A stretch of 64,000 nt of DNA, taken from assembly GCA_964590195.1 (NCBI GenBank), contig CAZPWJ010000015.1:4494-68493 (forward strand), in the 5' to 3' direction. Source of the DNA: an uncultured Rhodospirillaceae bacterium. GTDB taxonomy: Bacteria; Pseudomonadota; Alphaproteobacteria; GCA-2731375. How positions within the stretch are numbered: position 1 is the stretch's first letter; each line of letters opens with the position of its first letter. The position numbers and the translations under genes are program-made. Below, piece by piece: positions 1,793 through 53,732 of this stretch. The notes beneath the pieces were generated by a model. It made no database searches. It was given only the letters and a program-made list of their open reading frames with translations, and was not told where the DNA came from.

Positions 1793-4700
1793 TTATTCCG
1801 CGGCGTCGGATCGCTCGCCCATGGTTTGCCGCGCCACCAGATGGGCATACAGGCCGCGATGGGCGATCAACTCGTCATGGCGGCCCTGTTCGATCAGCTT
1901 GCCCTTTTCCAGCACGACGATGTGATCGGCATCGCGCACGGTGGACAGGCGATGGGCGATGACGATGGTGGTCCGCTCCGCCATCAGATCATCCAGGGCG
2001 GCGCGCACCAATTGTTCGTTGACGGCGTCCAGGTGCGAGGTTGCTTCGTCCAGGATCAGGACCGGCGCGTCCTTCAGGAATGCCCGCGCGATGGCGACCC
2101 GCTGCCGCTGTCCGCCCGACAGGCGCATGCCGCGCTCGCCCACCGGCGTCTCCAGGCCCTCGGGCAGGCCGGCGATGAAATCATCCAGAGCGGCGCGCTG
2201 GATCGCCTGGGCCAGCTCCGCCTGGCTCGCCTCGGGGCGGGCAATATGGATATTGGCGCCTAAGCTATCGTTGAACAAATAAGTGTCCTGGGCCACCAGG
2301 GCGATGCGCTGGCGCATCTCGTCCAATTGATAATCCCGCAGATCGTTGCCATCCAGTTCGATCCGGCCCCGGTCGGGGTCCCAAAAGCGCATGAACAAAT
2401 GCGCGATGGTGGTCTTGCCGGCCCCCGACGGCCCGACCAGGGCCAGGGTGCGGCCCACGGGCACGGTGAAGCTGACCCCTTCCAGGGCCGGCGCCTTGGT
2501 CCCTGCATAGCGGAAATCCACGTTGGCGAAACTTAATCCCGACGGCGCCTCCGGAGCCACGCCGGGGCCGTCCTGTACGGGGATATCTTCGCCGTGAATG
2601 GCATGCAGGCGCCGCGTCGCGCCCAGGGTGTCGGCCAGTTGCCGGCCAATATTGGCAATCTCGGAGATCGGCAGAAAGGCCGCCATGGCCAGCAGGGTCA
2701 ACAGAGGCAATTGCGCCGCCGGCAGGGCCCCGGCGCTGACCAGATCGGCACCCACGGTCACCACGGCCAGACCGCCCAGGCCGGTGGCCAGTTCCAGGGA
2801 CACGGTCTGCAAGGTCAATTCGCGAAAAAACGGTAGCCGCACCGTGATTTGCCGCCGCGCCAAGGCCATGAAATCGGCGCCCCGGCGGTCCTCGGCCTGA
2901 AAGGCCACGACTTCCGTCAGGCCCTGGATGCTGTCGACCGCATGGGCGTTCAATTCGCCCAGAGCCTCCCGCGCGGCGGAGCCCAGACGGTCGACCCGGC
3001 CACGCCGGAAAAAGGGGCTTAGACCGACGACAAGCAGAAACGGCGCCAGGGCCAGGGCCATGGGCGCCCCGAAATAGGCCAGGGTAATCAGCACCAACAA
3101 GGGCACCAGGACGGCGACGAAGGCCGGCGCCACGGTGTGGGCAAAGAAGAATTCAACGGTTTCCACATCCTGGGTGGCGACGGAGACCAGATCACCCGTG
3201 CGCCGCCCCAACAGATAGGCCGGCGCCAGTTTGTCCAGCTTCTCGAACAGGGCGATGCGCATCTCCGCCAACAGGCGGAAGGCCATGTCGTGGGCGATCC
3301 AGCTTTCCAGCCAATGCAGGATACCGGCCATGGGCGCCATCGCCGCCACGATCCACAGTAGATAACCATACGGCAGCCCGGACTTGACGGCGGCCACGGC
3401 CAGGGCGCCGACAATGCCGATACCCGTATAGGCAACAACCCGGCTGACGCCGAAAATAAAGGTCATGATCAGGCGGCCTTTCCAGGGCGCCACATAACCT
3501 AGAAGATTGCGAAAGGCACCGGCCCAGCCCATGCCCTGGGCCCGCAATATGGCATCGCTCTCGCCCGCCTCGATCGGCGGATCCTCGGCCACGGCCGCAA
3601 TATCCGTATCCGCCGCCGCCCGGGCTTCCAGACGCTGGTCCGCGCCGGACTTGTCTTGGGCCTGGGCCGCCATCAGACGGTGATAACTGCCGCCCAGGGC
3701 CATCAGTTCGTCGTGGCTGCCACTTTCGGCGATCCCGCCTTCGCCGCTATTGCCCAAAACCAAAATTCGGTCCGCATCAATGACGGAGGACAGCCGATGC
3801 GCGAAGATCATGGTGGTCCGCCCGGCCATCAGGCGGTCCAGGGCCTGCTGGATGACCGCTTCGTTTTCCGCATCGACCGAGGATAGCGCCTCGTCCAGCA
3901 CCAGGATCGGGGCGTCACGCAGCAAGGCCCGCGCGATGGCGATACGCTGGCGCTGCCCGCCCGACAGTTTCAGGCCCCGCTCGCCGACGATAGTCGCGAA
4001 ACCTTGCGGCAGGCCGGCGATGAACTCCGTGGCATTCGCGGCCTTCGCCGCCGCCTGTACTTCCGCCTCGCTGGCATCGGGCTTGCCCAGGCGGATATTG
4101 TCCTCGACGCTGCCAAAGAACAAATAGGTATCCTGCTGCACCACGGCGAACTGTTGGCGCAGGCTGGCCAGCGACTGGCGCCGGATATCCTGGCCGGCGA
4201 TCAGGATTTGCCCCTGGTCCGGATCATACAGGCGCAGCAACAGGCGCTGGATCGTGGTCTTGCCGGCCCCCGACGGCCCGACGATGCCGACCCGCTGGCC
4301 GGCCTGAATGGTGAAGTCCAGGCCGTCATGGGCCGCCTGATGGCTGCCGGGATAGGCAAAGCGCATGTCCTTGAATTGGACTGCGGCGGCGCCATCAAGA
4401 CTCAAGGTTTCGCCGCCATCGTCCTTCAGACTGGGCTCCGCCGCCAGAATGGCCAAAATACCTGTCGCCGCCGATTGCCCGACCATGCCCTGATGCAGCA
4501 GGTTACGGAGCTCGCGCAAGGGCCGATAGACCTCCACGCCCAGCATCAGCACCACCAACAGCACCCACATCTCGGTCTGCCCGGTGCTGACCCGCCAGGC
4601 ACCCACCGCCAGCGCGCCCGCGGCACCAAGCGCGATGCCGGTATCGGTGATGCCCCGGCCCAGGGCGTTGGTGGCCAGTACCCACATTGTGGTGCGGAAC

Positions 4701-5416
4701 AGATCATGGGCCTTGTCGGCCAGGCTTTTCGCCCGCACATGGCTTTGGCCAAAGGCCTTCAAGGTGCCCAAGCCCTGTAAACTATCGAGGAATTCGGCGG
4801 CGAAGGCGCCGTAGGATTTCGCCCTTGCCCGGGCGCTTTCCTTGTCCCAGAAATGAAAGGCCGACGGCGCCACCAGGGTAATCAGCGCAAATGCCAATAA
4901 AGTGGTGGCGACAAAGGGGTCGAGAAAGACTATAAAGACAAAAATCAGCACCGGCGTCAGGGCGGCGACGAACAGCTGCGGCAGATACTGGCCGAAATAC
5001 GTTTCCAGCTGTTCCACCCCCTCGACCAGGGAGACCAGCACATCGCCCGTACGCTTCAGGCCGAAATAGGCCGGGCCCAGATAGACGACCTGTTCGTATA
5101 GCCGTTGGCGCAGGGTCAGTTGTACCTTGGCCGAGGTGCGGTGGGCGACCATGTTGCGGCTGTATTCCAGGGCTCCGCGCAAAATCATGGTGCCGCCGAC
5201 CAGCAGGATCGGCCCCCACAACTCCGTCAGGCCCGCGCCATCGAAAACCAGCCCCAGCAGCCAGCCCAGCAGGACCAGTCGCAAGACGCCAATGGCGGCG
5301 GAAAACAGGCCAATCCCCACGGCGCCGAGGAGGCGATGGCGCAAACCTGCCGTGAAGCGCCAAAGCCGGGCGTCCAGATACATATGAAATTCCCACCTAG
5401 TTCGCGTGTCCCCCAC
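1793..5416 (-). CDS. fused ABC transporter permease/ATP-binding protein, CydD-CydC type (TMD-NBD-TMD-NBD)
   Basis: 1207 aa. It has two Walker A motifs (GPSGAGKTT twice), two LSGGQRQR signatures and two 6-TM regions. The first half has the CydD-like YLPQLFVAALTP motif and the second half the CydC-like GDLVSVATQDVETVE motif. The start may be the second ATG at 5383 (MYLD...). Confidence 0.8.
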   Translation of the reverse strand: MGDTRTRWEFHMYLDARLWRFTAGLRHRLLGAVGIGLFSAAIGVLRLVLLGWLLGLVFDGAGLTELWGPILLVGGTMILRGALEYSRNMVAHRTSAKVQLTLRQRLYEQVVYLGPAYFGLKRTGDVLVSLVEGVEQLETYFGQYLPQLFVAALTPVLIFVFIVFLDPFVATTLLAFALITLVAPSAFHFWDKESARARAKSYGAFAAEFLDSLQGLGTLKAFGQSHVRAKSLADKAHDLFRTTMWVLATNALGRGITDTGIALGAAGALAVGAWRVSTGQTEMWVLLVVLMLGVEVYRPLRELRNLLHQGMVGQSAATGILAILAAEPSLKDDGGETLSLDGAAAVQFKDMRFAYPGSHQAAHDGLDFTIQAGQRVGIVGPSGAGKTTIQRLLLRLYDPDQGQILIAGQDIRRQSLASLRQQFAVVQQDTYLFFGSVEDNIRLGKPDASEAEVQAAAKAANATEFIAGLPQGFATIVGERGLKLSGGQRQRIAIARALLRDAPILVLDEALSSVDAENEAVIQQALDRLMAGRTTMIFAHRLSSVIDADRILVLGNSGEGGIAESGSHDELMALGGSYHRLMAAQAQDKSGADQRLEARAAADTDIAAVAEDPPIEAGESDAILRAQGMGWAGAFRNLLGYVAPWKGRLIMTFIFGVSRVVAYTGIGIVGALAVAAVKSGLPYGYLLWIVAAMAPMAGILHWLESWIAHDMAFRLLAEMRIALFEKLDKLAPAYLLGRRTGDLVSVATQDVETVEFFFAHTVAPAFVAVLVPLLVLITLAYFGAPMALALAPFLLVVGLSPFFRRGRVDRLGSAAREALGELNAHAVDSIQGLTEVVAFQAEDRRGADFMALARRQITVRLPFFRELTLQTVSLELATGLGGLAVVTVGADLVSAGALPAAQLPLLTLLAMAAFLPISEIANIGRQLADTLGATRRLHAIHGEDIPVQDGPGVAPEAPSGLSFANVDFRYAGTKAPALEGVSFTVPVGRTLALVGPSGAGKTTIAHLFMRFWDPDRGRIELDGNDLRDYQLDEMRQRIALVAQDTYLFNDSLGANIHIARPEASQAELAQAIQRAALDDFIAGLPEGLETPVGERGMRLSGGQRQRVAIARAFLKDAPVLILDEATSHLDAVNEQLVRAALDDLMAERTTIVIAHRLSTVRDADHIVVLEKGKLIEQGRHDELIAHRGLYAHLVARQTMGERSDAAE

Positions 5417-5439
5417 AGCCCAAGATCACGGGCCGCGTC

Positions 5440-5640
5440 CCAAGCATAATCTATGCCGTCCGGACCGCCATGCCAATGGACAAGTGGCGGGTGATTGAAG
5501 TTGTATATTTTACCGCGATATTTTGCTGGATTTCTTGTTGTATTTGATGGCGAGGCAAGTATTCTCATGGGCAACAAGAAAATCCAGCCATTGGGCCGGT
5601 ATGCCCGCGTGGCTTGGGGTATATTTGTTTTTGAGAGGAC
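5440..5640 (+). promoter_or_regulatory. AT-rich structured leader upstream of cbtB; candidate (atypical) cobalamin riboswitch
   Basis: 230-bp low-GC leader in a high-GC genome directly 5' of cbtBA. It contains GGTGATTGAAG, TGGCGAGGCAAG (compare TGGCGAGGAAAC in the cobW riboswitch), GAAAATCC and GCCATTGGGCC (B12-box-like GCCACTG). The 3' GGGAAGGC element is not seen, so the call is tentative. Confidence 0.3.
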
Positions 5641-5646
5641 AAACGC

Positions 5647-5832
5647 ATGGCGCAGACAAGAGTTGCCAACCAGACAACCGCGACACAGGTACGTACCGCA
5701 CAGGTCATGCAGGCAGGCTTGGCGGCCCTTCTGGGGCTGGCGCTGTTCATTGGCGTGGCCCTGTCCCACCCCGCCGCAGTCCATAATGCAGCCCATGATT
5801 CCCGCCATGGCATAGCGGCGCCCTGCCACTAA
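5647..5832 (+). CDS. cbtB: cobalt transporter subunit CbtB
   Basis: 61 aa with a single TM helix and a His-rich C-terminus (HNAAHDSRHG); GAGAGGA RBS; immediately upstream of cbtA. Confidence 0.7.
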   Translation: MAQTRVANQTTATQVRTAQVMQAGLAALLGLALFIGVALSHPAAVHNAAHDSRHGIAAPCH

Positions 5833-5873
5833 ACCGTTGATGCCATTTTAGGCGGCCACCCCTGGGGGATTTG

Positions 5874-19735: not shown

Positions 19736-20356
19736 CTAAAACTCGATGCCTTTCTGGGCCTTCACGCCGGAGCGGAATGGATGTTTCACCTGGGTCATTT
19801 CCGTCACCAGATCGGCGATCTCGATCAGCTCGTCCTTGGCATTGCGGCCCGTGACGATGACGTGCAGATCCTCGGGCTTGTTTGCCAGGGTCTCGATAAT
19901 TTCATCCAGAGGCAGGTTGTCGTAGCGCAGCACGATGTTCAATTCATCCAGCAGGATCATATCGAACGCCGGGTTCGGTCCCCGCGAGGCCTCGATCATT
20001 TCCTTGGATTTGTCCCAGGCCTTGCGCGCGGCGGCAATGTCGCGGGCCTTGTCCTGGGTTTCCCAGCTGAAGCCTTCGCCCATGGCGTGGATCTCGATCT
20101 GTTCGGGGAAGTGTTCCAGGATATCGCGCTCTCCGGTCTCCCACTTGCCCTTGACGAATTGGATCACGCCGACCCGCATGCCGTTGCCCATGGCCCGCGC
20201 CACCAGGCCAAAGGCAGCGGTGGATTTGCCCTTGCCCTTGCCGGTGTGGACGATCAGCAGGCCCTTTTCGATGGTTTTCGAGGCCAGCATTTTCTCGCGC
20301 GCGCGTTTCTTGTTGGCGGCCTTTTCGTTGGCGCGGGCGTATTGATCTTCAGTCAT
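19736..20356 (-). CDS. cobO: cob(I)yrinic acid a,c-diamide adenosyltransferase
   Basis: 206 aa with the P-loop [14 protein letters not shown] typical of CobO/BtuR. Confidence 0.9.
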
Positions 20357-23300
20357 TGTTGTTCTCCCATGTTCACGGATTGGTTGGCCGCGATCAGATC
20401 ACGCAGGGCATCCGGCGTGGAATTGGAACGGGTCTGCCACAGGCCGCGTTCCAGCGCTTCCGCCAGCCGCTCCGCCATTTCCCGCAGCGCTGCCGGATTG
20501 TTTTGGCGCAGAAAATCCAGCACCTCTTCGTCCTTCAAATAGGCCTCATAGACCGCATCGAAATGATGGTCCGAGACCACCCGCGCCGTCGCCGCGAAGG
20601 CAAACAGGTAATCCACCGTCGCCGCCATCTCAAAGGCGCCCTTGTAGCCATGGCGCATGACGCCGGAAATCCATTTTGGATTGACCACCCTGGATCTGAC
20701 CACGCGGCCGATTTCATCTTCCAGGCTGCGGATTTTCGGCGCGAAGGGCCGGCTGTGGTCGTTGTGATAGATCGCCGGCTGGGCACCTGAATAATGCCGC
20801 ACGGCAGCGGTCAAGCCGCCTTCGAACTGGTAGTAGTCATCGGAATCCAGCAGGTCATGTTCCCGGTTGTCCTGGTTCTGCACCACGCCTTGGGTGGAGG
20901 ACAGCAAGGACTGGAATTGGCCATGGGCGGGCCGGCCGGATGTCTTGCCGCCATATGCATAGCCGCCCCAGGCCAGATAGGCCCGGGCCAGATCGCCGTC
21001 ATCCTGCCAGCCTCGCTCGTCCATCAGGGCCTGCAGACCAGCGCCATAGGCGCCTGGTTTGGAACCAAAAACACGCGCGGCGGCCAGATGATCGGCTTCT
21101 TCGCTGGAATGGCCGGCCTGGCGCAGGCGCACGCCGTCGGCGCGGGCGCGGGCCGCCAATGGATTGTCGCGCTCGCTTTCGTCTAGGGCCGCGACTTCCC
21201 GGGCGGCGCTGTCGAACAGGTCAATCTGGGTGGGAAAGGCATCGCGGAAAAAACCCGATATGCGCAAGGTTACGTCCACGCGGGGCCGATCCAGCATATG
21301 GATCGGCAGGATGTCGAAACCGATCACCCGGCGGGAGGCCGGCTCCCACTTTGGCTGCACGCCCATCAGGGCCAGGGCCTGGGCGATGTCGTCGCCGCCC
21401 GTACGCATATTGGCAGTGCCCCAGGCGCTGAGCGCCAGATGTTTCGGCCATTCGCCGTGGGTCTGGCGGTATTCGTCCAACAAAAGGTTGGCTGACTTCC
21501 AGCCCAGCTGCCAGGCGGCGGGGGTGGGCACGGTGCGGCTGTCGACGGAATAGAAATTGCGCCCCGTGGGCAACACATCCAGGCGTCCCCGTGTCGGCGC
21601 CCCCGATGCCCCCGGTTCAACGAATTCGCCATCCAGGCCACGAACTAGAGCGGAGATTTCCACCGCGCCGCAGGCATCCACGGTGGGTGCGACATGTTCC
21701 TTGATGGCGTCCAACACGGCGCGGGTCGCCGTCCATTCAGGCTGGGCCGATGCCGTGCCCTCAACCAGCGCGGCGGCCAATTCCTCCAGCCTCTCCACGG
21801 TGTCGCCATGGCTGCGCCAGGCCGCGCCGCTTTGCAGCACGGAAGGTCTTGCGCCGTTCCAGGCATCGCCCAGGGCGCAATCCAGCGGGTCGAAGGCAAG
21901 CTCCAAATCATTCGCCAGCGCCCTGATCAACGATGCATCGCCGGCATTGTCACCTTGCCGGGGCAGCCGGGTCAGGGCGACCAGCAGATCCCGGCGCAGG
22001 CGGCCTTCCAGCGGTTGGCCCAGAATGTGCAGGCCGTCGCGGATCTGCATTTCCTTCAGATCACAGAGATAATTGTCCAGCTTGGCCAGGGCCGCTGCCT
22101 CATCATCGGCCTCGGCGATGCCCGCGTCCTTGTCCAGTCCGATGTCGCGGGTCAGCTCCAGGATCTGCCCGCGCAACAGGTTCAAACGGCGCGGGTCCAG
22201 TCCGGCGGCTTCGTAGAACTCGTCAACCAGCAATTCCAGCTCCGCCAGGGGGCCATAGCTTTCCGCCCGGGTCAGGGGCGGCGTCAAATGATCCACGATC
22301 ACCGCCTGGGCCCGCCGCTTGGCCTGGGTGCCTTCGCCGGGGTCATTGACGATAAAGGGATAAAGATGCGGCAGCGGGCCAAAAACAGCTTCTGGGAAGC
22401 AGCTATCGGAAAGTGCCAGGGATTTGCCCGGCAGCCATTCCAGATTGCCGTGCTTGCCCATGTGGACCACGGCCTGGGCGGTAAAGCCCCGGCGCAGCCA
22501 GCCGTAGAAGGCCAGATAGCCGTGCGGCGGCACCAGGTCAGGATCGTGATAGCTCGACTTGGGATCGATGTTGTAACCCCTGGCCGGTTGCAGGCCGATC
22601 ACCACGTTGCCCAGAGTGAAGGCGGGCAGGACAAAATTCCCGCCGACCACGAAGGGATCATCCTTGGCCGGACCCCAGCGCTCGTCAACTTTTTCCCGCA
22701 CTGCCTCGGGCAGATCGTCAAAAAAGTTTTGATAGTCGGCCACGGCGAACTCAATACCACCCGCACGGCTGGCGCGGTCCTTCAGATTGTTGGTGGGGCC
22801 GGCGGCCAGCTTGCGGATCAGGTCATCGCCCTTGCCCGGCAGGTCCCCCACGTCATAGCCGGCATCGGCCAGGGCGCGCAGCAGGTTCAGGGCCGAGGCC
22901 GGCGAATCCAGCCCGACGCCATTGCCCATGCGCCCATCCTTGTTGGGGTAGTTGGCGAAAATCAGCGCCAGGCGGCGCTCCGCCGCGGGTGTTTGCGCCA
23001 ACGTCAACCAATTGGCGGCCAGCTGACAGACGAAATCAATACGGTCCGGCACGCCCTGGTAGGCGATCACCGGCAGCTGCGTGGCTTCATCGAAGCGCGC
23101 CTCGGCCTTGAACGAGACGGCGCGGGAGATGATGCGGCCATCGACCTCGGGCAGGGCAACGTTCATGGCGATGTCCCGGGCGCTCAAACCGTTCAGGTTA
23201 TCCCTCCAATCATCCTCGTTGCCGCCTGAGAATATCATCTGAATGACCGGCACGCCGGGACGCTCCAGCGGTGAATCCGCCCGCGCGCCGCCGGGTTTGG

Positions 23301-24105
23301 AAACGGCGAAACCGGTGGCATTCAGGATCACGCCGGGCGGTTCCTCGGCAAAGATGGAATTCACGGTTTCCGCCGATACGCCCTCCTTCAGGGAGGCGAC
23401 GAAGACCGGCAGCGGGTTAAGGCCTTTTTCGCGCAGACTTTGGATAACGCCGTCCACCGGGTCCAGATTGCCGGCCTGATACAGCGCCCGATAAAAGGTT
23501 ACCGCCGCCACCGGCGCGCCGGGCCGCCAATGCCGGCGCAGATCGTCCAACGACAGGGTGCCCTGGCCAGGCCAGTAGAGGCCCGCGCGCAGCAAGGGTG
23601 CCGGTTCCCGCCATTCGTTTGGCTGGCCCAGCAGATCGGCGGCGTAGGCCAGCAGATTGCCGCCGTTGTCCGGGCCGCCATGGACGAAATATTGCCATAG
23701 GCGATGGCAGCTCTCCGCCGGCAGGGTCGAGAGGCCATGCAGCTCCGCATCGGGCTGATCGTCGCCGGGAATGATCGCCAGGGCGATATTTTCGCGCCGG
23801 CAGCATTGCACCACCTGTTCCACGCCATAGGGCCAATAATTGACACCGCCCAGCAGGCGGACGATAACCAGCCTGGCCGCGCTGATGATGTCGCCGACGT
23901 AAAGATCGACGGACATGTTGTGGCTCAGGTTCATCAGGTTGGCCAGACGCAGACTCGGCCTATTCGAATCCTGCCGGACAGCCGCCAGCATCTGCAAATC
24001 CGTGTCCGCCGCCGATAGGATTACGATGTCGCCGGGGCTTTGGCCCAGGTCCACCGCCTCCGCGCCATCGGAGATTCCGCCGGGTTTGGCCGCGAGCAAA
24101 TGCAT
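20353..24105 (-). CDS. cobN: cobaltochelatase large subunit CobN
   Basis: 1250 aa of the CobN/Mg-chelatase H family, immediately downstream of cobW in a B12 operon. Confidence 0.9.
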   Translation of the reverse strand: MHLLAAKPGGISDGAEAVDLGQSPGDIVILSAADTDLQMLAAVRQDSNRPSLRLANLMNLSHNMSVDLYVGDIISAARLVIVRLLGGVNYWPYGVEQVVQCCRRENIALAIIPGDDQPDAELHGLSTLPAESCHRLWQYFVHGGPDNGGNLLAYAADLLGQPNEWREPAPLLRAGLYWPGQGTLSLDDLRRHWRPGAPVAAVTFYRALYQAGNLDPVDGVIQSLREKGLNPLPVFVASLKEGVSAETVNSIFAEEPPGVILNATGFAVSKPGGARADSPLERPGVPVIQMIFSGGNEDDWRDNLNGLSARDIAMNVALPEVDGRIISRAVSFKAEARFDEATQLPVIAYQGVPDRIDFVCQLAANWLTLAQTPAAERRLALIFANYPNKDGRMGNGVGLDSPASALNLLRALADAGYDVGDLPGKGDDLIRKLAAGPTNNLKDRASRAGGIEFAVADYQNFFDDLPEAVREKVDERWGPAKDDPFVVGGNFVLPAFTLGNVVIGLQPARGYNIDPKSSYHDPDLVPPHGYLAFYGWLRRGFTAQAVVHMGKHGNLEWLPGKSLALSDSCFPEAVFGPLPHLYPFIVNDPGEGTQAKRRAQAVIVDHLTPPLTRAESYGPLAELELLVDEFYEAAGLDPRRLNLLRGQILELTRDIGLDKDAGIAEADDEAAALAKLDNYLCDLKEMQIRDGLHILGQPLEGRLRRDLLVALTRLPRQGDNAGDASLIRALANDLELAFDPLDCALGDAWNGARPSVLQSGAAWRSHGDTVERLEELAAALVEGTASAQPEWTATRAVLDAIKEHVAPTVDACGAVEISALVRGLDGEFVEPGASGAPTRGRLDVLPTGRNFYSVDSRTVPTPAAWQLGWKSANLLLDEYRQTHGEWPKHLALSAWGTANMRTGGDDIAQALALMGVQPKWEPASRRVIGFDILPIHMLDRPRVDVTLRISGFFRDAFPTQIDLFDSAAREVAALDESERDNPLAARARADGVRLRQAGHSSEEADHLAAARVFGSKPGAYGAGLQALMDERGWQDDGDLARAYLAWGGYAYGGKTSGRPAHGQFQSLLSSTQGVVQNQDNREHDLLDSDDYYQFEGGLTAAVRHYSGAQPAIYHNDHSRPFAPKIRSLEDEIGRVVRSRVVNPKWISGVMRHGYKGAFEMAATVDYLFAFAATARVVSDHHFDAVYEAYLKDEEVLDFLRQNNPAALREMAERLAEALERGLWQTRSNSTPDALRDLIAANQSVNMGEQQ

Positions 24106-24112
24106 CGCCGGT

Positions 24113-25168
24113 TCAGTCCTCGGTCTTGGCCACGATCATGGCGCGGATGGCGCCCTCGTCCAGACCATGCAGACCGATCACTACAAGCTGCGAGGTCCGC
24201 GCCTCCCCCTCGCCCCAGTCCCGGTCGTAATAGTGCTGATAGCGGTCGCCAACGCCCTGTACCAACAGGCGCATATCCTTGCCTTCAACGGCAATGAAGC
24301 CCTTCATGCGCAAGACATCATGGGCGGCGGCGGCCTGGCGCAGTTTGGCCACCAGTGCCTCGGGCTCGGCCACGGCATCGAAAGTCACCACGAAGCTGTC
24401 GAAATCGTCGTGTTCGTGGTCGTCCTCGTCGTCATGATGCGAGGGACGGTTGTCCAGATCGTCTTCCGCCGCCGCGTCCAGGCCCAACAGCGTGTCGGCG
24501 GCAATGGCGCCGTGTTGCGCCGTTACCACGCGGACCGATGGGCGCAGGGCGGCTTGCAGGTCCCCGGCCACGCGGGGTGTCTGGTCAGCGGCCAGCAGGT
24601 CCGATTTGTTCATCACCACCATGTCGGCGCAGGCCAGCTGGTCCGTGAACAGCTCCGCCAGCGGGCTGTCGTGATCCAACGCTTCGTCCGCCTGCCGCTG
24701 CGCCGCCACGGCGTCGGGATCATCAGCGAACAGACCGGCGGCAAAGGCCGGCCCGTCGACCACGGCGACCACGCCATCGACGGTGATACGGGTGCGGATG
24801 GCCGGCCAGTTGAAGGCCTTCAGAAGAGGTTTCGGCAAAGCCAGGCCCGAGGTTTCGATAATGATGTGGTCAATACCCTCGGGCCGGTCCAGCAGGGCCT
24901 CCATGGTGGGTACGAAATCGTCGGCCACGGTGCAGCAGATGCAGCCGTTGGCCAATTCGACAATGTCCTCCTCGGCGCAGTTCTCGGCGCCGCAGGCCTT
25001 GAGGATATTGCCGTCGACCCCCATATCGCCGAATTCGTTGATAATCAGCGCCAGACGCTTGCCATTGGCGGTCTGTAGCAGATGCCGGATCATTGAGGTC
25101 TTGCCGGCGCCAAGAAAGCCGGTAATCACGGTGGCGGGAATACGTTGCAGATTACTCATGGATGGCAT
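24113..25168 (-). CDS. cobW: cobalamin biosynthesis GTPase CobW (COG0523 metallochaperone)
   Basis: GFLGAGKTS P-loop, GCICC metal-binding motif and a His-rich segment (SHHDDEDDHEHDD). It is the first gene after the riboswitch. Confidence 0.85.
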   Translation of the reverse strand: MPSMSNLQRIPATVITGFLGAGKTSMIRHLLQTANGKRLALIINEFGDMGVDGNILKACGAENCAEEDIVELANGCICCTVADDFVPTMEALLDRPEGIDHIIIETSGLALPKPLLKAFNWPAIRTRITVDGVVAVVDGPAFAAGLFADDPDAVAAQRQADEALDHDSPLAELFTDQLACADMVVMNKSDLLAADQTPRVAGDLQAALRPSVRVVTAQHGAIAADTLLGLDAAAEDDLDNRPSHHDDEDDHEHDDFDSFVVTFDAVAEPEALVAKLRQAAAAHDVLRMKGFIAVEGKDMRLLVQGVGDRYQHYYDRDWGEGEARTSQLVVIGLHGLDEGAIRAMIVAKTED

Positions 25169-39980: not shown

Positions 39981-40018
39981 TAGAGCATCTCGCAAAAAAT
40001 GGCCGGATGCAGATGCAT
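39981..40018 (-). terminator. rho-independent terminator of the CNPC-repeat/P460 gene
   Basis: Perfect 11-bp inverted repeat GGCCGGATGCA-gatgca-TGCATCCGGCC (39991..40018). On the minus strand it is followed by AUUUUUUG (complement of cgcaaaaaat at 39981..39990). It sits between convergent genes. Confidence 0.55.
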
Positions 40019-40095
40019 GCATCCGGCCAGTCTTGGAGGTGTGACAACAGGATGAACGAACGGTCCAAACGAACCAATCGTACTAACGTGTGGGA

Positions 40096-41331
40096 CTAAC
40101 GTACGCGGTACTCATCCGGCAGGAACATCAGGCTGTCCTGTTCCTCGGCGACAGCCATGTGGCATTCGTAGCAGAAGTTCATCTTGGCCGAGCCGGCGCC
40201 ATTGGTGGTGCCGAATACCTGGCCGTTGGGCAGCACCATGGTGTAACGCCAGTTGCCTGAGGCCTTGTTGAAACCAGCCGGCATTTTCTCCATCAGGAAC
40301 AGCGGCCCCGCCGCCAGCTTGCCGTCAGCCTTGGCGACGAAGCTGTCCTTGGCCAATAGGGCACCAACGGCCATGCGGCCCGCCGCTTCATATTTGCCGT
40401 AGTTGCCGGCGGAGGTATTGCCGTAATTGTTGACGTAGCGCCCGCCATGGGTGTCCGAAACATAGGGCTGCGAGGAATAGTTCTTCCAATCCTTGTAGTG
40501 GCTGGCCACGGTCAGACCGGACTTGGAATAGCCGGCAACAAGATCCTCGACCAGGCAGTCATAGGCCTTGCGCGCCTCGGCCGCCGTCAACTCGGCCACG
40601 GCACCGGCGCCACAGGGATTACACGGATTGCAGGGATTGCAAGGGCCGCAGCCTTTCTTGGCGGCGCATGGGTTGCACGGATTGCAGGCTTTCTTGGCGG
40701 CACATGGATTGCATGGGCTGCAAGCTTTCTTGGCGGCGCACGGGTTGCAGGCGCCACAGCCCTTCTTTTTGGCCGCACAGGGATTGCACAATGAAGCCTT
40801 GACCAGGCGTGGAATGGCGCATTTCAGTGATGCCGAGGCGCCGCCGGCACCGCAAGGATTACAGGGATTACAGGCACCGCAACCCTTTTTCGCGGCGCAG
40901 GGATTGCACGGATTACAGGCCTTCTTGGCGGCGCAGGGATTGCAGGCGCCACAGGCCTTTTTCGCCGCACAGGGATTGCAGGCGCCGCAACCTTTCTTCT
41001 TGGCCGCGCATGGATTGCAGGCACCGCAGCCGCGTTTCTTACTGGCGCACGGGTTGCACGCGGCGGCCAGCCGCATTGGTCCTTGGTCTCTGGGCGCGGC
41101 GGGTGCGTTGGGCTGTTGGCCCCCGGCCAAAGTCCCCCTGGCGACGGCGGTGGGATTAATCCCATTGGAGGCGCCGGACGCTGAAGCCGTCTGGGCGGCT
41201 CTGGCAAAGGCGACATCAGCTAAAGGAATAGTGGCACCGGCCGCCAAGGCCGCCCCCATGACCACTTGCAACACGGATGATTTGATGATTTTGCTTTTCG
41301 TTGATCGCACGATCCAGCCTCCAGCATTCAT
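40096..41331 (-). CDS. secreted fusion protein: signal peptide + two arrays of CNPC/Lys-rich tandem repeats + C-terminal cytochrome P460-family domain (CXXCH)
   Basis: ATG at 41331 with a GGGGAA RBS (the ORF-track start 41346 is TTG). The N-region/hydrophobic signal peptide is followed by an Ala/Gly/Gln/Pro linker. Residues ~97-246 hold 17 C-N-P-C motifs in units such as CNPCAAKK(K)GCGA and CNPCNPC, arranged as two diverged ~75-aa blocks. The C-terminus ...[10 protein letters not shown]...[26 protein letters not shown] resembles cytochrome P460 (GNW.Y... C..CH ... D.VF..FYP). Confidence 0.6.
40609..41058 (-). repeat. in-frame coding tandem repeat (9-39 bp units, gggattgca core) encoding CNPC / CAAKK units
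   Basis: The plus strand shows a reiterated gggattgca(c/g)gg... with ttcttggcggcgca(c/t)gg units in two blocks (40609..40800 and 40835..41058). Synonymous third-position drift between blocks argues against a recent duplication. Confidence 0.85.
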
Positions 41332-41458
41332 TTGATTGTTCCCCAATTTTTTTCGTGCCCTATATCTGCACCCGCCACCCGGTAGAAACGAGTCACATCA
41401 ACTCAAACTTCCGTGAGCGGGCCTGGGAATCCGATGCCACCGTCTGTAATTTCACATC

Positions 41459-42346
41459 ATGAGGAAGCTTTCGAAGCGTGCACCGGCATTCATCATGGCA
41501 GTCTGTACCGTCATCATCGGTGCGGTGGATGACGGTGTGCAGGCGGGGGAAATCCCGGTGCCGGCAACCGTCAACATCCAGGCGGGTGGCTTCATCGCCG
41601 GTTCCGGCCAGGCCGAGCGTGACGCAGCCTATGATCTGGACCAGGCCGCCTATGGCCATGACCGCACCCGTCAGTGGGGCTGGTACGATGATGAACGGCC
41701 CCGGCGGCGGCATCACTTGCCGGCCTTTGCCATCACCCGGAGCACGATTACCAACCACCAATATGCGGCCTTTGTCGCGGCCACCGGGCACCCCGCCCCC
41801 GACGTCGACCGGGCGACCTGGCTCGGCTACCGTCTGATCCATCCCTATCAGCGCACCTGGCGCCACGCCTGGCGCAAACGGCTGCCGCCGCCGGGACGGG
41901 AAGAGCATCCGGTGGTACTCGTTTCCCACGTCGATGCCCTGGCCTATGCCGCATGGCTAAGCGCCGAGAGCGGACATAGCTGGCGCCTGCCAAACGAGTT
42001 GGAGTGGGAAAAGGCGGCACGGGGTACCGATGGCCGATACTTTCCCTGGGGCAATGAATATGACGCTGGGCGTCTGAACAGCCATGACGCGGGCCCATTT
42101 GACACCATGGCGGTTGGACAATTCAGCAACGGGGCCAGCCCCTTTGGTCTGTTGGATCCCGCCGGCCAGGTTTTTGAATGGACCGCCACACCGGCAAACG
42201 GCCAAAGTGGGCAGCCGGCCCGCTATCTGGTCAAGGGTGGCTCATGGGATGACAAGGGGTGCGGCGTTTGCCGGCCCGCCGCGCGCCATGGCCGACCGGC
42301 GGCCATAAAGCATATTCTGATCGGCTTTCGGTTGGTCAGGGAATAA
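41459..42346 (+). CDS. formylglycine-generating enzyme (FGE/SUMF1) family protein, periplasmic (NirV-like)
   Basis: Signal peptide, then HPVVLVSHVDALAYAAWL, RLPNELEWEKAARG, and C-terminal GGSW...R...IGFRLV motifs of the FGE-sulfatase family. Divergent from the CNPC/P460 gene with 127 bp between the starts. Confidence 0.8.
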   Translation: MRKLSKRAPAFIMAVCTVIIGAVDDGVQAGEIPVPATVNIQAGGFIAGSGQAERDAAYDLDQAAYGHDRTRQWGWYDDERPRRRHHLPAFAITRSTITNHQYAAFVAATGHPAPDVDRATWLGYRLIHPYQRTWRHAWRKRLPPPGREEHPVVLVSHVDALAYAAWLSAESGHSWRLPNELEWEKAARGTDGRYFPWGNEYDAGRLNSHDAGPFDTMAVGQFSNGASPFGLLDPAGQVFEWTATPANGQSGQPARYLVKGGSWDDKGCGVCRPAARHGRPAAIKHILIGFRLVRE

Positions 42347-42384: not shown

Positions 42385-43086
42385 ATGAGTTTGTTCGACG
42401 GTTTATCGCGGCAACGGTTGGAGAAAATGGCCGCCGCTGGGGCTGAAGTCCTGGAGTGCTACCGGGTGCTGGAGAAGACCTCGGCCAACGTGGTGGGCCA
42501 GGTGATCGAACACGGCGGTACCTTCTATGAATGGGATCATTACCCGGAAGGCGACGTCTATGACCATGAAACCTATGGGCAGTATTATTACCATTCGCAC
42601 CGCCCGGAAGAGGGCGAACACGGCCATTTCCACCTCTTCGTCCGGCGCGAGGCCATTCCCGACCGGATGCGCCCCATCCCCTTTGCCGGTACCGATGAGT
42701 GGCCCGAGGGCGACGAGGTCATCTGTCATCTGGGCGCTATCTCCATGGACCAGAAGGGCTTTCCGACGCATCTGTTCACCACCAACCGCTGGGTCACCGG
42801 TGAACATTGGTACGGCGCCGCCGACGTGACCGAACTGCTGGACAAATTCGTTATCGACCACACCTTTCCCTCCTGGGCCGTAAACCGCTGGATCACGGCC
42901 ATGGTGGCCCTGTATCAGCCGCAGATGGCGCAATTGCTGATCGAACGGGATGCCGCCGTGCAGACCTGGTCCGATAGCCATGCGGGCGATGTGCTGGAGG
43001 ACCGGGATCTGGAGCTGACCTCGAAAATCGCTCTGGACATCCCGCACCAGATCAAGCAAATCAACAAGGCATTGAAAAAATTCTAG
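42385..43086 (+). CDS. hypothetical protein with His-rich patch (YYYHSHRPEEGEHGHFHLF)
   Basis: 233 aa from ATG 42385. No family recognised by eye; likely cytoplasmic; co-oriented with the FGE gene and msrB. Confidence 0.45.
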   Translation: MSLFDGLSRQRLEKMAAAGAEVLECYRVLEKTSANVVGQVIEHGGTFYEWDHYPEGDVYDHETYGQYYYHSHRPEEGEHGHFHLFVRREAIPDRMRPIPFAGTDEWPEGDEVICHLGAISMDQKGFPTHLFTTNRWVTGEHWYGAADVTELLDKFVIDHTFPSWAVNRWITAMVALYQPQMAQLLIERDAAVQTWSDSHAGDVLEDRDLELTSKIALDIPHQIKQINKALKKF

Positions 43087-43100
43087 GGGAATTTTGAGGA

Positions 43101-43505
43101 ATGGGGATGGATAAAATCACAAAGACCGACGCGGAATGGCGGGCACAGCTGACGGACGAGGAATATCACGTGGCCCGAAAAAAGGGCACCGAACGGCCCT
43201 TTGGCCCCGGCTATAACAGCTGTCACGATGCAGGCATCTACACCTGTGTCTGCTGTGGGTTGGAGCTGTTTTCGTCCGAGGCAAAGTTCGATTCTGGCAC
43301 CGGCTGGCCCAGCTTTCACACCCCCCTGGTGGCGGAGAACGTGGCCGAGGAGTCTGACAATTCCCTGTTCATGCGGCGCACGGAAGTCCTGTGCGCCCGC
43401 TGCGACGGCCATCTTGGCCACGTCTTTCCCGATGGCCCTGCGCCTACGGGCTTGCGCTATTGCCTGAATTCGGCTTCCCTGCGCCTGGTTCAGGACGACA
43501 AATAG
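43101..43505 (+). CDS. msrB: peptide-methionine (R)-S-oxide reductase MsrB
   Basis: Two CxxC zinc motifs (CVCCGLELF ... [12 protein letters not shown]) and the catalytic RYCLNS motif. Confidence 0.9.
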
Positions 43506-45329: not shown

Positions 45330-45753
<424 letters not shown>

Positions 45754-51420: not shown

Positions 51421-52990
51421 TTTAGTCGTACTGCTAGGTCTCGCTTCGACGCCGGCCCTGGCCAGTCAGGCCAAACCTGGCGAGGCCGCCGCCAACGCGA
51501 GCGCGTTGTACGCCGAACATTGCGCGGCCTGTCATGGCGCCGACCGCCTGGGACAAAGCGGGCCGGCCCTGCTGCCGCAGAACCTGCGCCGGCTGCGCCA
51601 GGCCAAGGCGGTCAAGGTCATCAACAAGGGCCGCATCGCCACCCAGATGCCTGGTTTCAGCGAGGTTTTGCAGGCGGACGAAATCGCCGCCCTGGTGAAG
51701 CTGATCTATACCCCCCTGAGCACGCGGCCCGTATGGGGCAAGGCCGAGATCCAGGCCAGTCGGGTGGTCGAGAAAGATGCCCTGAACCTGCCGAACAAAC
51801 CGGTCTTCAATGCCGATCCGCTGAACCTGTTCGTGGTGGTGGAAACCGGCGATCACCACGCGAGTATCCTGGATGGCGACAGTTTCGAAAGGCTGCATCG
51901 TTTCCCAACCCGCTTTGCCCTGCATGGTGGGCCGAAATTTTCGCCGAAAGGCCGTTTTGTCTATTTCGGCTCCCGCGATGGCTGGGTCTCCAAGTATGAT
52001 TTGTATAATTTCAGGCTGGTGGCCGAGGTCCGCGCCGGCATAAATATGCGCAACATCGCCATTTCCGCCGACGGCAAGTATCTGGCGGCGGCGAATTATC
52101 TGCCCCATTCCATTGCGCTGTTGGACGCCCACGACCTGTCATTGCTGAAACTGATTCCGGTGGTGGACTATTTCAAGAAGAAAACCTCGCGGGTTTCCGC
52201 CGTCTATCAGGCCCGCCCGCGCAATTCCTTTATCGCCGCCCTCAAGGATGTGCCGGAAATCTGGGAAATCTCGACCGACCCCAACGCCCCGCCGGTGGTC
52301 ACCGGCCTGGCGCACAGCAACGAACAGGGCCACGAGGAGACTTTGACGAACAACAACAAGGGCCTGTTCGCCCTGCGCCGGATGCTGATCAAGGAACCCC
52401 TGGACGACTTTTTCTTTGATCCGCCCTACCGCAACCTGATCGGCTCCTCACGGGACGGCAAGCATGGCATTGTCGTCAATCTGAATGTGGGCAAGGAAAT
52501 CCGCAGCGTCGGCCTGCCGGGCCTGCCGCATCTCGGCTCGGGCATCACCTGGGAATGGCAGGGCCGGCCGGTTATGGCGACGCCGCATCTACGCGGCGGC
52601 CAGGTCTCCGTGATCGACATGGAGGAATGGAAGGTCATTAAAAGCATCAAGACCAAGGGACCGGGATTCTTCATGCGCGGCCATGAAAACAGCCCCTACG
52701 CCTGGGTCGATGTTTTTTTTGGCCCAAACCGGGATCTGATGCATGTCTTCGACACGCGTAGCCTGGAGATCATCAAGACCCTGCGGCCGGCGCCGGGCAA
52801 AACCGCCGCCCATGTGGAGTTTACCCGCGACGGCTCCCACGCCCTGGTTTCGATCTGGGACATGGACGGCGCCCTGGTGGTCTATGACGCCAAGACCCTG
52901 GAGGAAGTGAAGCGTATCCCGATGGTCAAACCGTCCGGTAAATACAATGTCTTCAACAAGATTACCCTGTCCGCCGGCACCTCCCATTAG
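51404..52990 (+). CDS. nirN: cytochrome cd1-like dihydro-heme d1 dehydrogenase NirN
   Basis: Signal peptide, one heme c motif (CAACHG), then a d1-type beta-propeller ending KPSGKYNVFNKITLSAGTSH. GTG 51404 overlaps the nirJ stop. Confidence 0.85.
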   Translation: MRWVFSLVVLLGLASTPALASQAKPGEAAANASALYAEHCAACHGADRLGQSGPALLPQNLRRLRQAKAVKVINKGRIATQMPGFSEVLQADEIAALVKLIYTPLSTRPVWGKAEIQASRVVEKDALNLPNKPVFNADPLNLFVVVETGDHHASILDGDSFERLHRFPTRFALHGGPKFSPKGRFVYFGSRDGWVSKYDLYNFRLVAEVRAGINMRNIAISADGKYLAAANYLPHSIALLDAHDLSLLKLIPVVDYFKKKTSRVSAVYQARPRNSFIAALKDVPEIWEISTDPNAPPVVTGLAHSNEQGHEETLTNNNKGLFALRRMLIKEPLDDFFFDPPYRNLIGSSRDGKHGIVVNLNVGKEIRSVGLPGLPHLGSGITWEWQGRPVMATPHLRGGQVSVIDMEEWKVIKSIKTKGPGFFMRGHENSPYAWVDVFFGPNRDLMHVFDTRSLEIIKTLRPAPGKTAAHVEFTRDGSHALVSIWDMDGALVVYDAKTLEEVKRIPMVKPSGKYNVFNKITLSAGTSH

Positions 52991-53732
52991 GCATCGGCAT
53001 GGGAAGAACGGCAGCCTGCTGATCGTGGTCGGCCACGGTACGGGCACGGCGGCCGGTGATGCCACGCTGCACGCCCTGGCCGCTGATCTTGGGGCGCGGG
53101 AGGGCTTTGCCCGGGTCAGGGCCGCCGTGTTGCGCGGCACGCCCGCGCTCGGGGATGTTCTGAGCCAGCTCGACACCGGGCCGGGCGCTCAATTGCCTTG
53201 CCTGCTGCCATTCATGATGAGTGACGGTGTGACCTTCCGTCAGGGCCTGATGGAGGCCATGGCCCATATTCCAGGCCCGCGAAGGCCGCTCTTGTATCCC
53301 CCCCTGGGACTGAACCCAGGACTGGCCGAATTGATCGCCAGGCGGGGCGAAAAGGCGGCCAGGGCGGCGTCCTGGAAAGCGGCGGATTGCCGGCTGCTAT
53401 TGATTGCCCATGGCTCGCTACAGGATCCGGCCTCGGCCCAGGCCGCGCGGGCACATCAGGAACGCATCGCCGCCCAACATGGATTTGCCACCGTCGAAGT
53501 GGCGTTTTTGGATCAACCGCCGCATTTGGACGAGGTTCTGGCACGGAATGGCGGCCCGGTGCTTGGCGTCGGCCTATTTGCGGGCGAAGGCCGTCATGGC
53601 GCCGAGGATATGAAAAAGGCTTTTGCCCTGGCCGCCTGTCCGGCCCGTTATTGCGGCACCATTGGCGGCGATCAAGGCCTCGCCGCCCTGGCCGTCGAGC
53701 ACCTGAAAACCGAGCCCCAAACAAGCCTGTAG
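52947..53732 (+). CDS. CbiX/SirB-type two-domain chelatase (putative sirohydrochlorin ferrochelatase for the siroheme-to-heme d1 route)
   Basis: Two CbiX-like halves (LLIVVGHGTGTAAGD / LLLIAHGSLQDPASAQAA). The only in-frame ATG is at 52947, overlapping nirN by 44 nt. Confidence 0.6.
   Translation: MSSTRLPCPPAPPIRHRHGKNGSLLIVVGHGTGTAAGDATLHALAADLGAREGFARVRAAVLRGTPALGDVLSQLDTGPGAQLPCLLPFMMSDGVTFRQGLMEAMAHIPGPRRPLLYPPLGLNPGLAELIARRGEKAARAASWKAADCRLLLIAHGSLQDPASAQAARAHQERIAAQHGFATVEVAFLDQPPHLDEVLARNGGPVLGVGLFAGEGRHGAEDMKKAFALAACPARYCGTIGGDQGLAALAVEHLKTEPQTSL

Follow-up and report, generated by a model that had tools for sequence, protein, structure and literature searches.

Positions 41459-42346 (+) of a 64,000-nt stretch of the uncultured Rhodospirillaceae contig CAZPWJ010000015.1 (the window, by which we mean the whole stretch analysed) hold a gene for a predicted secreted protein of the formylglycine-generating enzyme (FGE) fold, which stands back to back with a gene whose product joins a run of cysteine repeats to a cytochrome P460-type heme domain. 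Comparison with related loci indicates that the two belong to a conserved module, which would consist of the FGE-like gene, one or two genes for secreted poly-cysteine proteins (CxxC with period 3, mostly CNPC) and usually a gene of the DUF6969 family. Judged by its sequence, the FGE-like protein is a member of an uncharacterised alphaproteobacterial FGE-fold clade and is neither NirV nor a sulfatase-activating FGE. We regard it as plausible, though short of probable, that this protein acts directly on the poly-CxxC proteins as a cysteine-pair, probably Cu-dependent, oxidase or exchange partner.

The evidence is genomic throughout, and the relatives are mostly metagenome-assembled genomes (MAGs). 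A forward scan that kept one genome per species gave 80 genome loci (FGE-like identity 61-90%), and a reverse scan of metagenomes with a profile of the P460 domain gave 80 metagenome loci, for a total of 160 related loci, which are cited by number (L001 and so on). Synteny counts use the 66 of the 80 genome loci that have at least 1.5 kb of upstream sequence. Features of the window that enter the argument are these:

41459-42346, plus strand: FGE-like gene, 295 aa, predicted to be secreted; intact open reading frame (ORF) with a PF03781 match.
41459-41542, plus strand: predicted Sec signal peptide of the FGE-like protein, residues 1-28, MRKLSKRAPAFIMAVCTVIIGAVDDGVQA before GE; read from the sequence and from homologue N-termini.
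42236-42289, plus strand: codons of the GGSWDDKGCGVCRPAARH loop, with C268 at 42260-42262 and C271 at 42269-42271; from the alignment and from hhalign against SUMF1.
40096-41346, minus strand: Cys-repeat/P460 gene, 416 aa, predicted to be secreted; from the ORF, Pfam, orthologues, an AlphaFold (AF2) model and a fold search.
40852-41061, minus strand: Cys-repeat block 1, residues 96-165, which includes CNPCNPC units; from residue positions, with tandem DNA at 40862-41031.
40789-40851, minus strand: linker between the Cys-repeat blocks, with a C-x-[IV]-P-R-L core common to orthologues; from orthologue sequences.
40612-40788, minus strand: Cys-repeat block 2, residues 187-245; from residue positions, with tandem DNA at 40613-40788.
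40099-40596, minus strand: cytochrome P460/c'-beta-like domain, residues 251-416, with a CYECH motif at 40159-40173; from Pfam, AF2 and Foldseek.

A sequence-only reading of the window had described an FGE-family gene divergent from a CNPC-repeat/P460 gene, an arrangement that the ORFs, the PF03781 match and a P460/c'-beta fold match confirm. It had also put forward the repeat protein as the partner of the FGE-like gene, with conserved synteny in related genomes as the check. Such synteny is found: a Cys-repeat gene lies directly beside the FGE-like gene in 45-46 of 66 species-level loci (~70%), and the association persists without the P460 domain. In 43 of the 66 the Cys-repeat ORF runs the other way and lies 236-736 nt away from the start of the FGE-like gene (35 are fused to a P460 domain and 8 are short and repeat-only), in two (L044 and L079) it is directly downstream on the same strand in the order FGE-CysRep, and one further locus (L046) has a lower-density repeat. 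In the short proteins, exemplified by L041 5461-5952, the signal peptide leads into ACNPCKPACGAC... and then a stop, with no heme domain; since 8 loci have such repeat-only partners, the FGE-like gene is tied to the repeat module and not to P460. A second small secreted Cys-repeat ORF lies ~1 kb beyond the FGE-like gene in 12 of the 66 loci, and elsewhere in the same loci there are three Cys-rich stretches only, all spurious. At least four gene orders keep the FGE-like and Cys-repeat genes together. One strand of L174 and of L175 carries DUF6969, the FGE-like gene, a 173-aa CNPCAAKK protein, a 407-aa Cys-repeat/P460 protein and an SNase-like gene; L079 has the order DUF6969, FGE-like, Cys-repeat protein; and DUF6969 lies beyond the P460 gene in L067, L072, L081 and L083.

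In the reverse direction, nearly all 80 metagenomic loci found with the P460 profile carry the Cys-repeat extension, the FGE-like gene is upstream in 12 of the 30 that have at least 2.5 kb of upstream flank, and 6 of the 11 with flank on both sides have neither an FGE-like gene nor DUF6969. These counts bear on a possible role of the FGE-like protein in maturing the heme of the P460 domain, such as linking it covalently to the protein. The gene does adjoin a P460/c'-beta-fold domain in 35 of 66 loci, and an invariant lysine of that domain (K83) sits on a predicted beta strand, yet we consider such a role very unlikely: in 8 loci the partner of the FGE-like gene is a repeat-only protein, an FGE-like gene is missing beside most Cys-repeat/P460 genes, and the P460 Lys-heme cross-link is reported to form without an accessory enzyme.

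The FGE-sulfatase family PF03781 covers residues 34-294 of the window protein (E 9.2e-43, Pfam scan). Its N-terminus, MRKLSKR followed by a 16-residue hydrophobic stretch and then VQA before GE, reads as a Sec signal peptide for export; a hydrophobic N-terminus is present in all aligned FGE-like homologues and also in L174. The earlier assignment of signal peptides to both products of the divergent pair agrees with charged and then hydrophobic N-terminal segments, judged by eye and from homologue alignments. An alignment of 23 FGE-like homologues (65-73% identity) has a mean column identity of 69%, with many invariant His, Asp and Trp residues, a conserved insert at about residues 108-140 that contains invariant H128 and H136, and an invariant clade motif, GGSWDDxGCGxCRPAARHxRP, which is present in 81 of 86 loci scanned. 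Homologues are named 'SUMF1/EgtB/PvdO family nonheme iron enzyme' at NCBI and 'formylglycine-generating enzyme required for sulfatase activity' elsewhere. In a PDB sequence search with the clade profile, the closest solved relative is ToxD (7spq, E 4.5e-35), followed by CalU17 (E 6e-26), OvsA and SUMF2, with true FGEs below these. A tblastn search of plasmids returned distant relatives only (<40% identity); the best, at 38.5%, is in a Streptomyces sp. NBC_00316 plasmid (L088, 1243-4777), where it follows a PQQ-like beta-propeller gene and ribA, an order that corresponds to a toxoflavin-like ToxC-ToxB-ToxD arrangement in an actinomycete.

The cysteine loop sets this clade apart from canonical FGE. 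The reference was a segment of human SUMF1 that is 100% identical to PDB 2aii. When the clade profile is aligned to it with hhalign, C268 corresponds to the catalytic C341, C336 falls in a 2-residue deletion and C271 corresponds to Y344. Sister clades (42-50% identity) keep a Cys directly before R-x-A-x-R-H, so an alternative pairing of C271 with C341 is possible; a second Cys is either absent from them or at a different site (GCSWDD..G.CR). Whichever pairing is right, the window protein retains one of the two canonical Cys and has the other at a new position, and the CGxC pair is specific to the clade of the window. The sister clade with the GCSWDD..G.CR pair comprises P0377, P0378, P0389, P0406, P0409, P0412, P0429, P0432, P0442 and P0459, and in it the partner Cys stands where the GGS motif has its second Gly. 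That the window protein is an ordinary aerobic FGE that activates sulfatases might be supposed from the Pfam match and from the names that some homologues carry. The deletion at C336, the rank of true FGEs below ToxD, CalU17, OvsA and SUMF2, and a signature search that found no sulfatase signature in the window or the 160 related loci leave this reading with scarcely any credibility, and on the Cys loop and the missing sulfatase signatures we ruled out canonical FGE identity.

The 416-aa neighbour contains 16 CNPC, 1 CSPC and 1 CGPC unit, 18 CxPC units in all; the 17 C-N-P-C units counted in the sequence-only reading are thereby amended, while its remark that they have no Arg stands, as there is no CxPxR. 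The repeat region is 22% Cys (35 of 156 residues), 22% Ala and 14% Lys and has no Phe, Tyr, Trp or His; the spacing of its Cys residues is predominantly 3, and its DNA is tandem with periods of 36 and 72 nt. Orthologues share the order signal peptide or anchor, block 1, C-x-[IV]-P-R-L linker, block 2 and heme domain, with 15 to 73 Cys and a repeat unit that drifts (e.g. NPCAANPC). The orthologue in L084 has 44 Cys and no CxPx, therefore the constant feature is period-3 CxxC and not C-x-P-x. Scanned against Pfam and NCBIfam, the repeat modules gave noise only and no family model. Several individual loci show how far the protein varies. The FGE-like genes of L005 (1400-2529) and L001 (8641-10001) are 100% identical, and the distance from P460 to the FGE-like start is 632 nt in the former and 863 nt in the latter; the 231 nt by which L005 is shorter amount to ~77 repeat codons and could be a repeat-number polymorphism or an assembly collapse. 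The Cys-repeat protein of L079 (6930-8393, +) is cut off by the end of the contig; it has at least 488 aa and at least 92 Cys, arranged in super-repeats of ~100 aa that each end in KSGSLQPGNGFAVKRARVGSHKACEAA. Beside the FGE-like gene of L068 is a gene (4295-5836, -) for a lipoprotein-like P460 homologue (39% identity) with 5 Cys and no repeats, which has CKKCT for CxxCH, and so no heme-ligand His, and a long C-terminal tail of LDPNAPV repeats.

The C-terminal domain scores 26.1 bits against Cytochrome_P460 (PF16694), whose threshold is 27, and most homologues carry a precomputed PF16694 match. An AlphaFold model built from 26 homologues (predicted local distance difference test score, pLDDT, 88) matches the cytochrome P460/c'-beta fold: the 14 best PDB fold matches found with Foldseek are all of this type (E 3.5e-5 to 4e-3). 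Sequence searches of the PDB with the domain, as a single sequence and as a profile, returned nothing significant. C142, C145 and H146 of the CxxCH motif of the domain are invariant in the alignment. In public annotations the protein is usually reduced to its last 164-167 aa and listed as a 'cytochrome P460 family protein' without a signal peptide, and antisense ORFs with 'GLQAPQPFF' repeats have been called as genes across the repeats (window 40568-41335, +; L001 9356-9877; L003 5887-6654). These antisense ORFs are spurious and constitute a systematic annotation artefact of the family, in which the real gene is cut short or split; the full-length frame is supported because it is open, begins with a conserved export signal and keeps its Cys codons in dozens of species.

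On the reading that we favour, the FGE-like protein would act on the repeat proteins in the periplasm, after their export by Sec. Two Cys of FGE hold Cu(I), which binds the substrate Cys and activates O2 (bioRxiv 10.1101/2021.05.21.445229), and because the FGE cysteine pair holds Cu(I), a Cu(I)- or thiol-centred oxidation of CxxC would be the simplest extrapolation. The invariant CGxC pair would probably hold Cu(I) as the FGE pair does and would engage a CxxC unit via a shared Cu(I)-thiolate or mixed-disulfide intermediate; the unit would then be oxidised with O2, perhaps to formylglycine or to a cross-link, be it a disulfide or some other. The motif of the enzyme, CG[VI]C, is of the same type as the repeat units CGAC, CGPC and CNPC, a likeness that fits a shared Cu(I) or mixed-disulfide intermediate or, as well, a plain metal hand-over. 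Formylglycine specifically would be a minority outcome, because the repeats have no Arg, Pro-free repeats exist and C336 is missing. What the sequences show is the fold, the Cys pair peculiar to the clade, export signals on both partners and a neighbourhood that is conserved in several gene orders; the direct interaction, the copper dependence and the chemistry are what we infer here.

Several observations weigh against this oxidase or exchange reading. None of the repeat units of the window protein has CxPxR or CxPxK; the unit of the L084 orthologue is CGACGAC; and the Pro-free repeats of L084 and L066 stand beside an unchanged FGE-like motif. An argument of the sequence-only reading, that the repeats resemble the C-x-P-x site of FGE substrates, is weakened by the lack of Arg in all 18 CxPC units, by L084 and by the missing C336. 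On the enzyme side, the alignment of the Cys loop is ambiguous, as the spacing from the GGS anchor would pair C271 with C341 instead of C268, canonical C336 has no equivalent under either alignment, and many FGE-fold proteins are not Cys-oxidising enzymes (ToxD, EgtB, PvdO, PorK). As for synteny, 55-60% of the Cys-repeat/P460 loci have no adjacent FGE-like gene, ~30% of the FGE-like loci have no Cys-repeat gene within 6 kb, and in Pelagibius sp. Alg239-R121 a distance of 57 kb on one contig separates the FGE-like gene from a group formed by the Cys-repeat/P460, SNase-like and DUF6969 genes; in Sneathiella neither the P460 gene nor the DUF6969 gene has any of the others beside it. The association is strong, but it is obligatory in neither direction.

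Further features of the window bear on the remaining alternatives:

42385-43086, plus strand: DUF6969 gene, 233 aa, without a signal peptide and with a His-rich motif; PF22308, E 1.3e-81.
43101-43505, plus strand: msrB (methionine-R-sulfoxide reductase); Pfam SelR, E 1.6e-49.
41347-41458, no strand: divergent intergenic region, 112 bp; from the ORF starts.
41388-41416, minus strand: conserved upstream element, minus-strand reading TCACGGAAGTTTGAG-TTGATGTGACTCGT; from an alignment of intergenic regions.
40000-40029, minus strand: intrinsic-terminator-like hairpin with a 12-bp stem and a T run, 67 nt past the stop codon of the Cys-repeat/P460 gene.

In ~55 of the 80 genome loci, DUF6969 is found close to the FGE-like gene. 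The gap between the two is 38 nt in the window, and in L174, where DUF6969 is upstream of the FGE-like gene, it is 8 nt; the two genes are therefore probably co-transcribed. The DUF6969 protein is, as its sequence predicts, cytoplasmic and without a signal peptide. Its AF2 model (pLDDT 86.8) has no PDB fold match with E <1 in Foldseek, and it may be an undescribed fold with a His-rich metal-type motif, formed by residues that are invariant in the alignment (H52, H70, H72, E78, H81 and H83). Our literature search found no paper that mentions DUF6969. Beyond it, msrB follows in only part of the clade (L007-L017, L090, L096, L098 and L105), and a small secreted SNase (thermonuclease)-like protein is encoded beside the Cys-repeat/P460 gene in L174 (8455-8922), L170 (7435-7923), L048 and L083.

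An explanation without covalent change is that the module buffers metal: the poly-CxxC proteins would be a periplasmic, metallothionein-like sink or store in which Cu(I) or some other soft metal is kept, the FGE-like protein, as their partner, would bind Cu(I) and exchange copper with the repeats through CGxC, and DUF6969 would be a cytoplasmic, metal-related partner. The metallothionein-like composition of the repeats, the invariance of CxxC spacing and not of CxPx across orthologues, and the invariant His and Glu residues of DUF6969 argue for it. Metallochaperones of the Atx1/CopZ type and their targets share CxxC-type motifs, and the FGE-like protein, which has such a motif itself, would resemble them in this respect; that FGE cysteine pairs bind Cu(I) (bioRxiv 10.1101/2021.05.21.445229) points the same way. 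Set against this, the very high conservation across the whole FGE fold looks more like an enzyme than a chaperone, the Dsb system is expected to oxidise periplasmic thiols unless they are protected, and no known copper-homeostasis gene was found among the Pfam-scanned genes of the window, a screen that did not extend to the related loci. A buffering module, with these roles for its members, is in our judgement a serious but rather doubtful candidate.

A further explanation dispenses with interaction: the FGE-like protein and DUF6969 would serve another substrate and would merely share a stress regulon (oxidative, NO or general) with the repeat gene. Here the regulatory sequence is relevant. 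The sequence-only reading gave the divergent region as 127 bp, which holds from an ATG at 41331; from the TTG start it is 112 bp. It contains a TATAAT-like block, ~20-40 nt upstream of the FGE-like start codon and conserved among close relatives, and the 29-nt element at 41388-41416, which is also common to close relatives (extended gene-strand form, TCACGGAAGTTTGAGKYGATGTKACTCGT). The core of the element, TCAC-N6-TTTGAG, recurs upstream of Cys-repeat/P460 genes in ~20 loci (e.g. L018, L030, L078, L133 and L146), including loci without an FGE-like gene, as co-regulation would lead one to expect. The strong terminator-like hairpin after the Cys-repeat/P460 gene suggests that this gene is monocistronic. 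An ECF/EcfG-type promoter (GGAAC-N16-17-CGTT) upstream of the Cys-repeat gene, as which the element might be read, was considered and rejected: it matches in 7 of 87 regions, as against 1.8 in shuffles, and as the match is limited to the closest clade it is not general.

The pairing of FGE-like and DUF6969 genes is slightly more constant than that of FGE-like and Cys-repeat genes, which also favours co-regulation. DUF6969 is kept in loci that lack a Cys-repeat gene and have a TRAP-permease gene upstream, in some of them with a universal-stress-protein-like ORF after it, and it stands beside Cys-repeat/P460 genes without an FGE-like gene in Pelagibius L170, L119 and L142. Redox-repair genes recur nearby as well: msrB, a glutathione S-transferase (GST) gene, a DSBA-like gene and, in L174, AhpC/Redoxin. 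We nevertheless hold mere co-regulation to be unlikely. By their N-termini the DUF6969 protein, without a signal peptide, and the FGE-like protein, with one, cannot share a compartment, and the adjacency of the FGE-like and Cys-repeat genes survives at least 4 rearrangements and extends to repeat-only proteins and second copies, which is more than a loose regulon usually shows.

The window also carries a nir cluster ~3 kb downstream, from which the sequence-only reading took its 'NirV-like' label; the cluster is indeed present, but neither the label nor a link to the cluster is supported. It begins with a nirS remnant at 45385 and nirE at 45860, followed by nirC, nirF, nirJ and nirN, and is of the cd1/heme d1 type. 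A 122-aa ORF directly upstream of nirE (45385-45753, +) looks like the nirS remnant, since its residues 53-117 match positions 311-368 of the 368-position Cytochrom_D1 profile; there is no full-length nirS ORF between the GST gene and nirE in the window, and the heme d1 genes downstream (nirE, C, F, DLGH, J and N) appear intact. The nir genes adjoin the FGE-like gene only in contigs of the window population itself. Beyond it, the remnant ORF has one weak (46%) match in 1 of the 80 genome loci and none in the 80 metagenome loci; as the linkage is limited to the own population, the proximity is a local accident, and a conserved link to the nir locus was ruled out. For context, cobN and cobW lie upstream (20353-25168, -) and a CbiX-type chelatase gene follows nirN (52947-53732, +), an ordinary setting.

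As the reference NirV we used the FGE-domain ORF that comes immediately after the multicopper nirK ORF on pSymA of S. meliloti (L089:17737-18651); a first tblastn match on pSymA had turned out not to be nirV. The two proteins are alike in several respects that would suit a NirV-type accessory factor of nitrite reductase or denitrification, as would the heme d1 cluster 3 kb downstream: both have an FGE-sulfatase domain, a similar length (304 aa in NirV, 295 aa in the window) and a hydrophobic N-terminus that reads as a signal peptide, and the single Cys of NirV, in a 'CGI' context, aligns with C268. They differ in that NirV has no GGSW and no second Cys and is tied to nirK, whereas a tblastn search with S. 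meliloti NirK found no nirK in the window or the 160 related loci and nir linkage is not conserved. Their identity is 29% over 179 aa, with 27% gaps (42 bits), and ToxD is much closer to the window protein. FNR/NnrR boxes (TTGAT-N4-ATCAA) are no commoner upstream than in shuffled sequence, and the local nirS is only the 122-aa remnant. We ruled out NirV orthology on the 29% identity and the absence of nirK near any related locus, and a NirV-type role for the protein has hardly any likelihood left.

Taken more broadly, the module could be an undescribed periplasmic post-translational system, in which dozens of CxxC units would be processed by an enzyme of the FGE fold whose Cys pair has moved, and DUF6969 would be a third component; the product might be poly-formylglycine or cross-linked material, or else Cu-thiolate clusters to which a P460-type heme that binds NO or hydroxylamine is tethered. 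We offer this picture, drawn from sequence, as possible rather than likely. The FGE superfamily and cytochrome P460 are already known, and the CGxC clade, the secreted poly-CxxC proteins, their P460-type fusion and the DUF6969 partner are undescribed in Pfam, NCBIfam or searchable papers; no paper was found that combines cytochrome P460 with 'cysteine-rich', or periplasmic metallothionein with cysteine-rich repeat, FGE and copper. No enzyme other than FGE is known to use a bis-cysteine Cu(I) site for the oxidation of a cysteine in a protein, and sulfatases are its single established substrate class. If the proposal is true, the CGxC clade and its repeat-protein partner would form a second, very different FGE substrate class and could supply new aldehyde-tag-like chemistry. 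The module is small. The partner proteins are metallothionein-like in composition, predicted to be exported and often fused to P460/c'-beta, and have no Pfam or NCBIfam repeat model. Most of the related genomes are MAGs of marine Alphaproteobacteria, and the names of several (Saanich Inlet, Arabian Sea, 3000-4000 m) suggest an origin in deep or oxygen-deficient waters, where copper, thiol and NO chemistry bear on N2O production.

Among known systems, cytochromes P460/c'-beta (PDB 7ead, 6hiu, 2je2 and 7s5o) resemble the heme domain of the neighbour in predicted fold (TM-score 0.57-0.68 for the best matches), in a single C-terminal CxxCH and in a periplasmic location, which is predicted here. 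Identity to them is only 13-21%, the Pfam score is below the curated threshold, and the neighbour has in addition a CxxC-repeat extension of ~150 residues at its N-terminus for which there is no curated family model. The extension recalls metallothioneins and copper storage proteins in its 22% Cys, its lack of aromatics and His and its CxxC units with small or Lys residues, and differs from them in its strict tandem repeats, its fusion to a heme domain and its predicted export; the bacterial metallothioneins described so far are, to our knowledge, cytosolic. Bufferin-type precursors of ribosomally synthesised and post-translationally modified peptides (RiPPs) are signal-peptide-bearing, Cys-containing peptides that are modified for copper binding. 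They share with the present system a small, Sec-exported, Cys-containing protein encoded beside a dedicated enzyme, and the short repeat-only proteins of 100-175 aa are comparable to them. The enzyme here has an FGE fold rather than being of the MNIO/DUF692 type, and it is itself predicted to be exported, so that modification would follow export.

The nearest solved relatives of the enzyme by sequence are in the ToxD (7spq)/CalU17 group, on which our literature search turned up no biochemistry for ToxD. In the alignment ToxD lacks both Cys of the CGxC motif. The ToxD type is cytoplasmic, whereas the window protein has an N-terminal signal sequence, and the ToxD-like plasmid gene stands among small-molecule biosynthesis genes, whereas the window and related loci have no tox-like neighbours; among the Pfam-scanned genes of the window there is no tox-like gene (GTP cyclohydrolase II, beta-propeller ToxC or methyltransferase cluster). 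With aerobic FGE (SUMF1; PDB 1y1e, 2aii, 6muj and 6s07) the window protein shares the PF03781 fold, one Cys aligned with catalytic C341 and the landmarks RLPxExEWEKAARG, FPWG, GxVxEWT and GGS...AAR...GFR, and its substrate too would contain Cys, in part as C-x-P-x, and be encountered in an oxidising compartment. It differs in the absence of C336, in the presence of a Cys three residues after the first (CGxC) and in the extra insert at about residues 108-140 with H128 and H136. The setting differs as well: the loci have no sulfatase signature, the neighbouring repeat protein has no CxPxR, and each molecule of the putative substrate would have dozens of Cys as targets instead of one.

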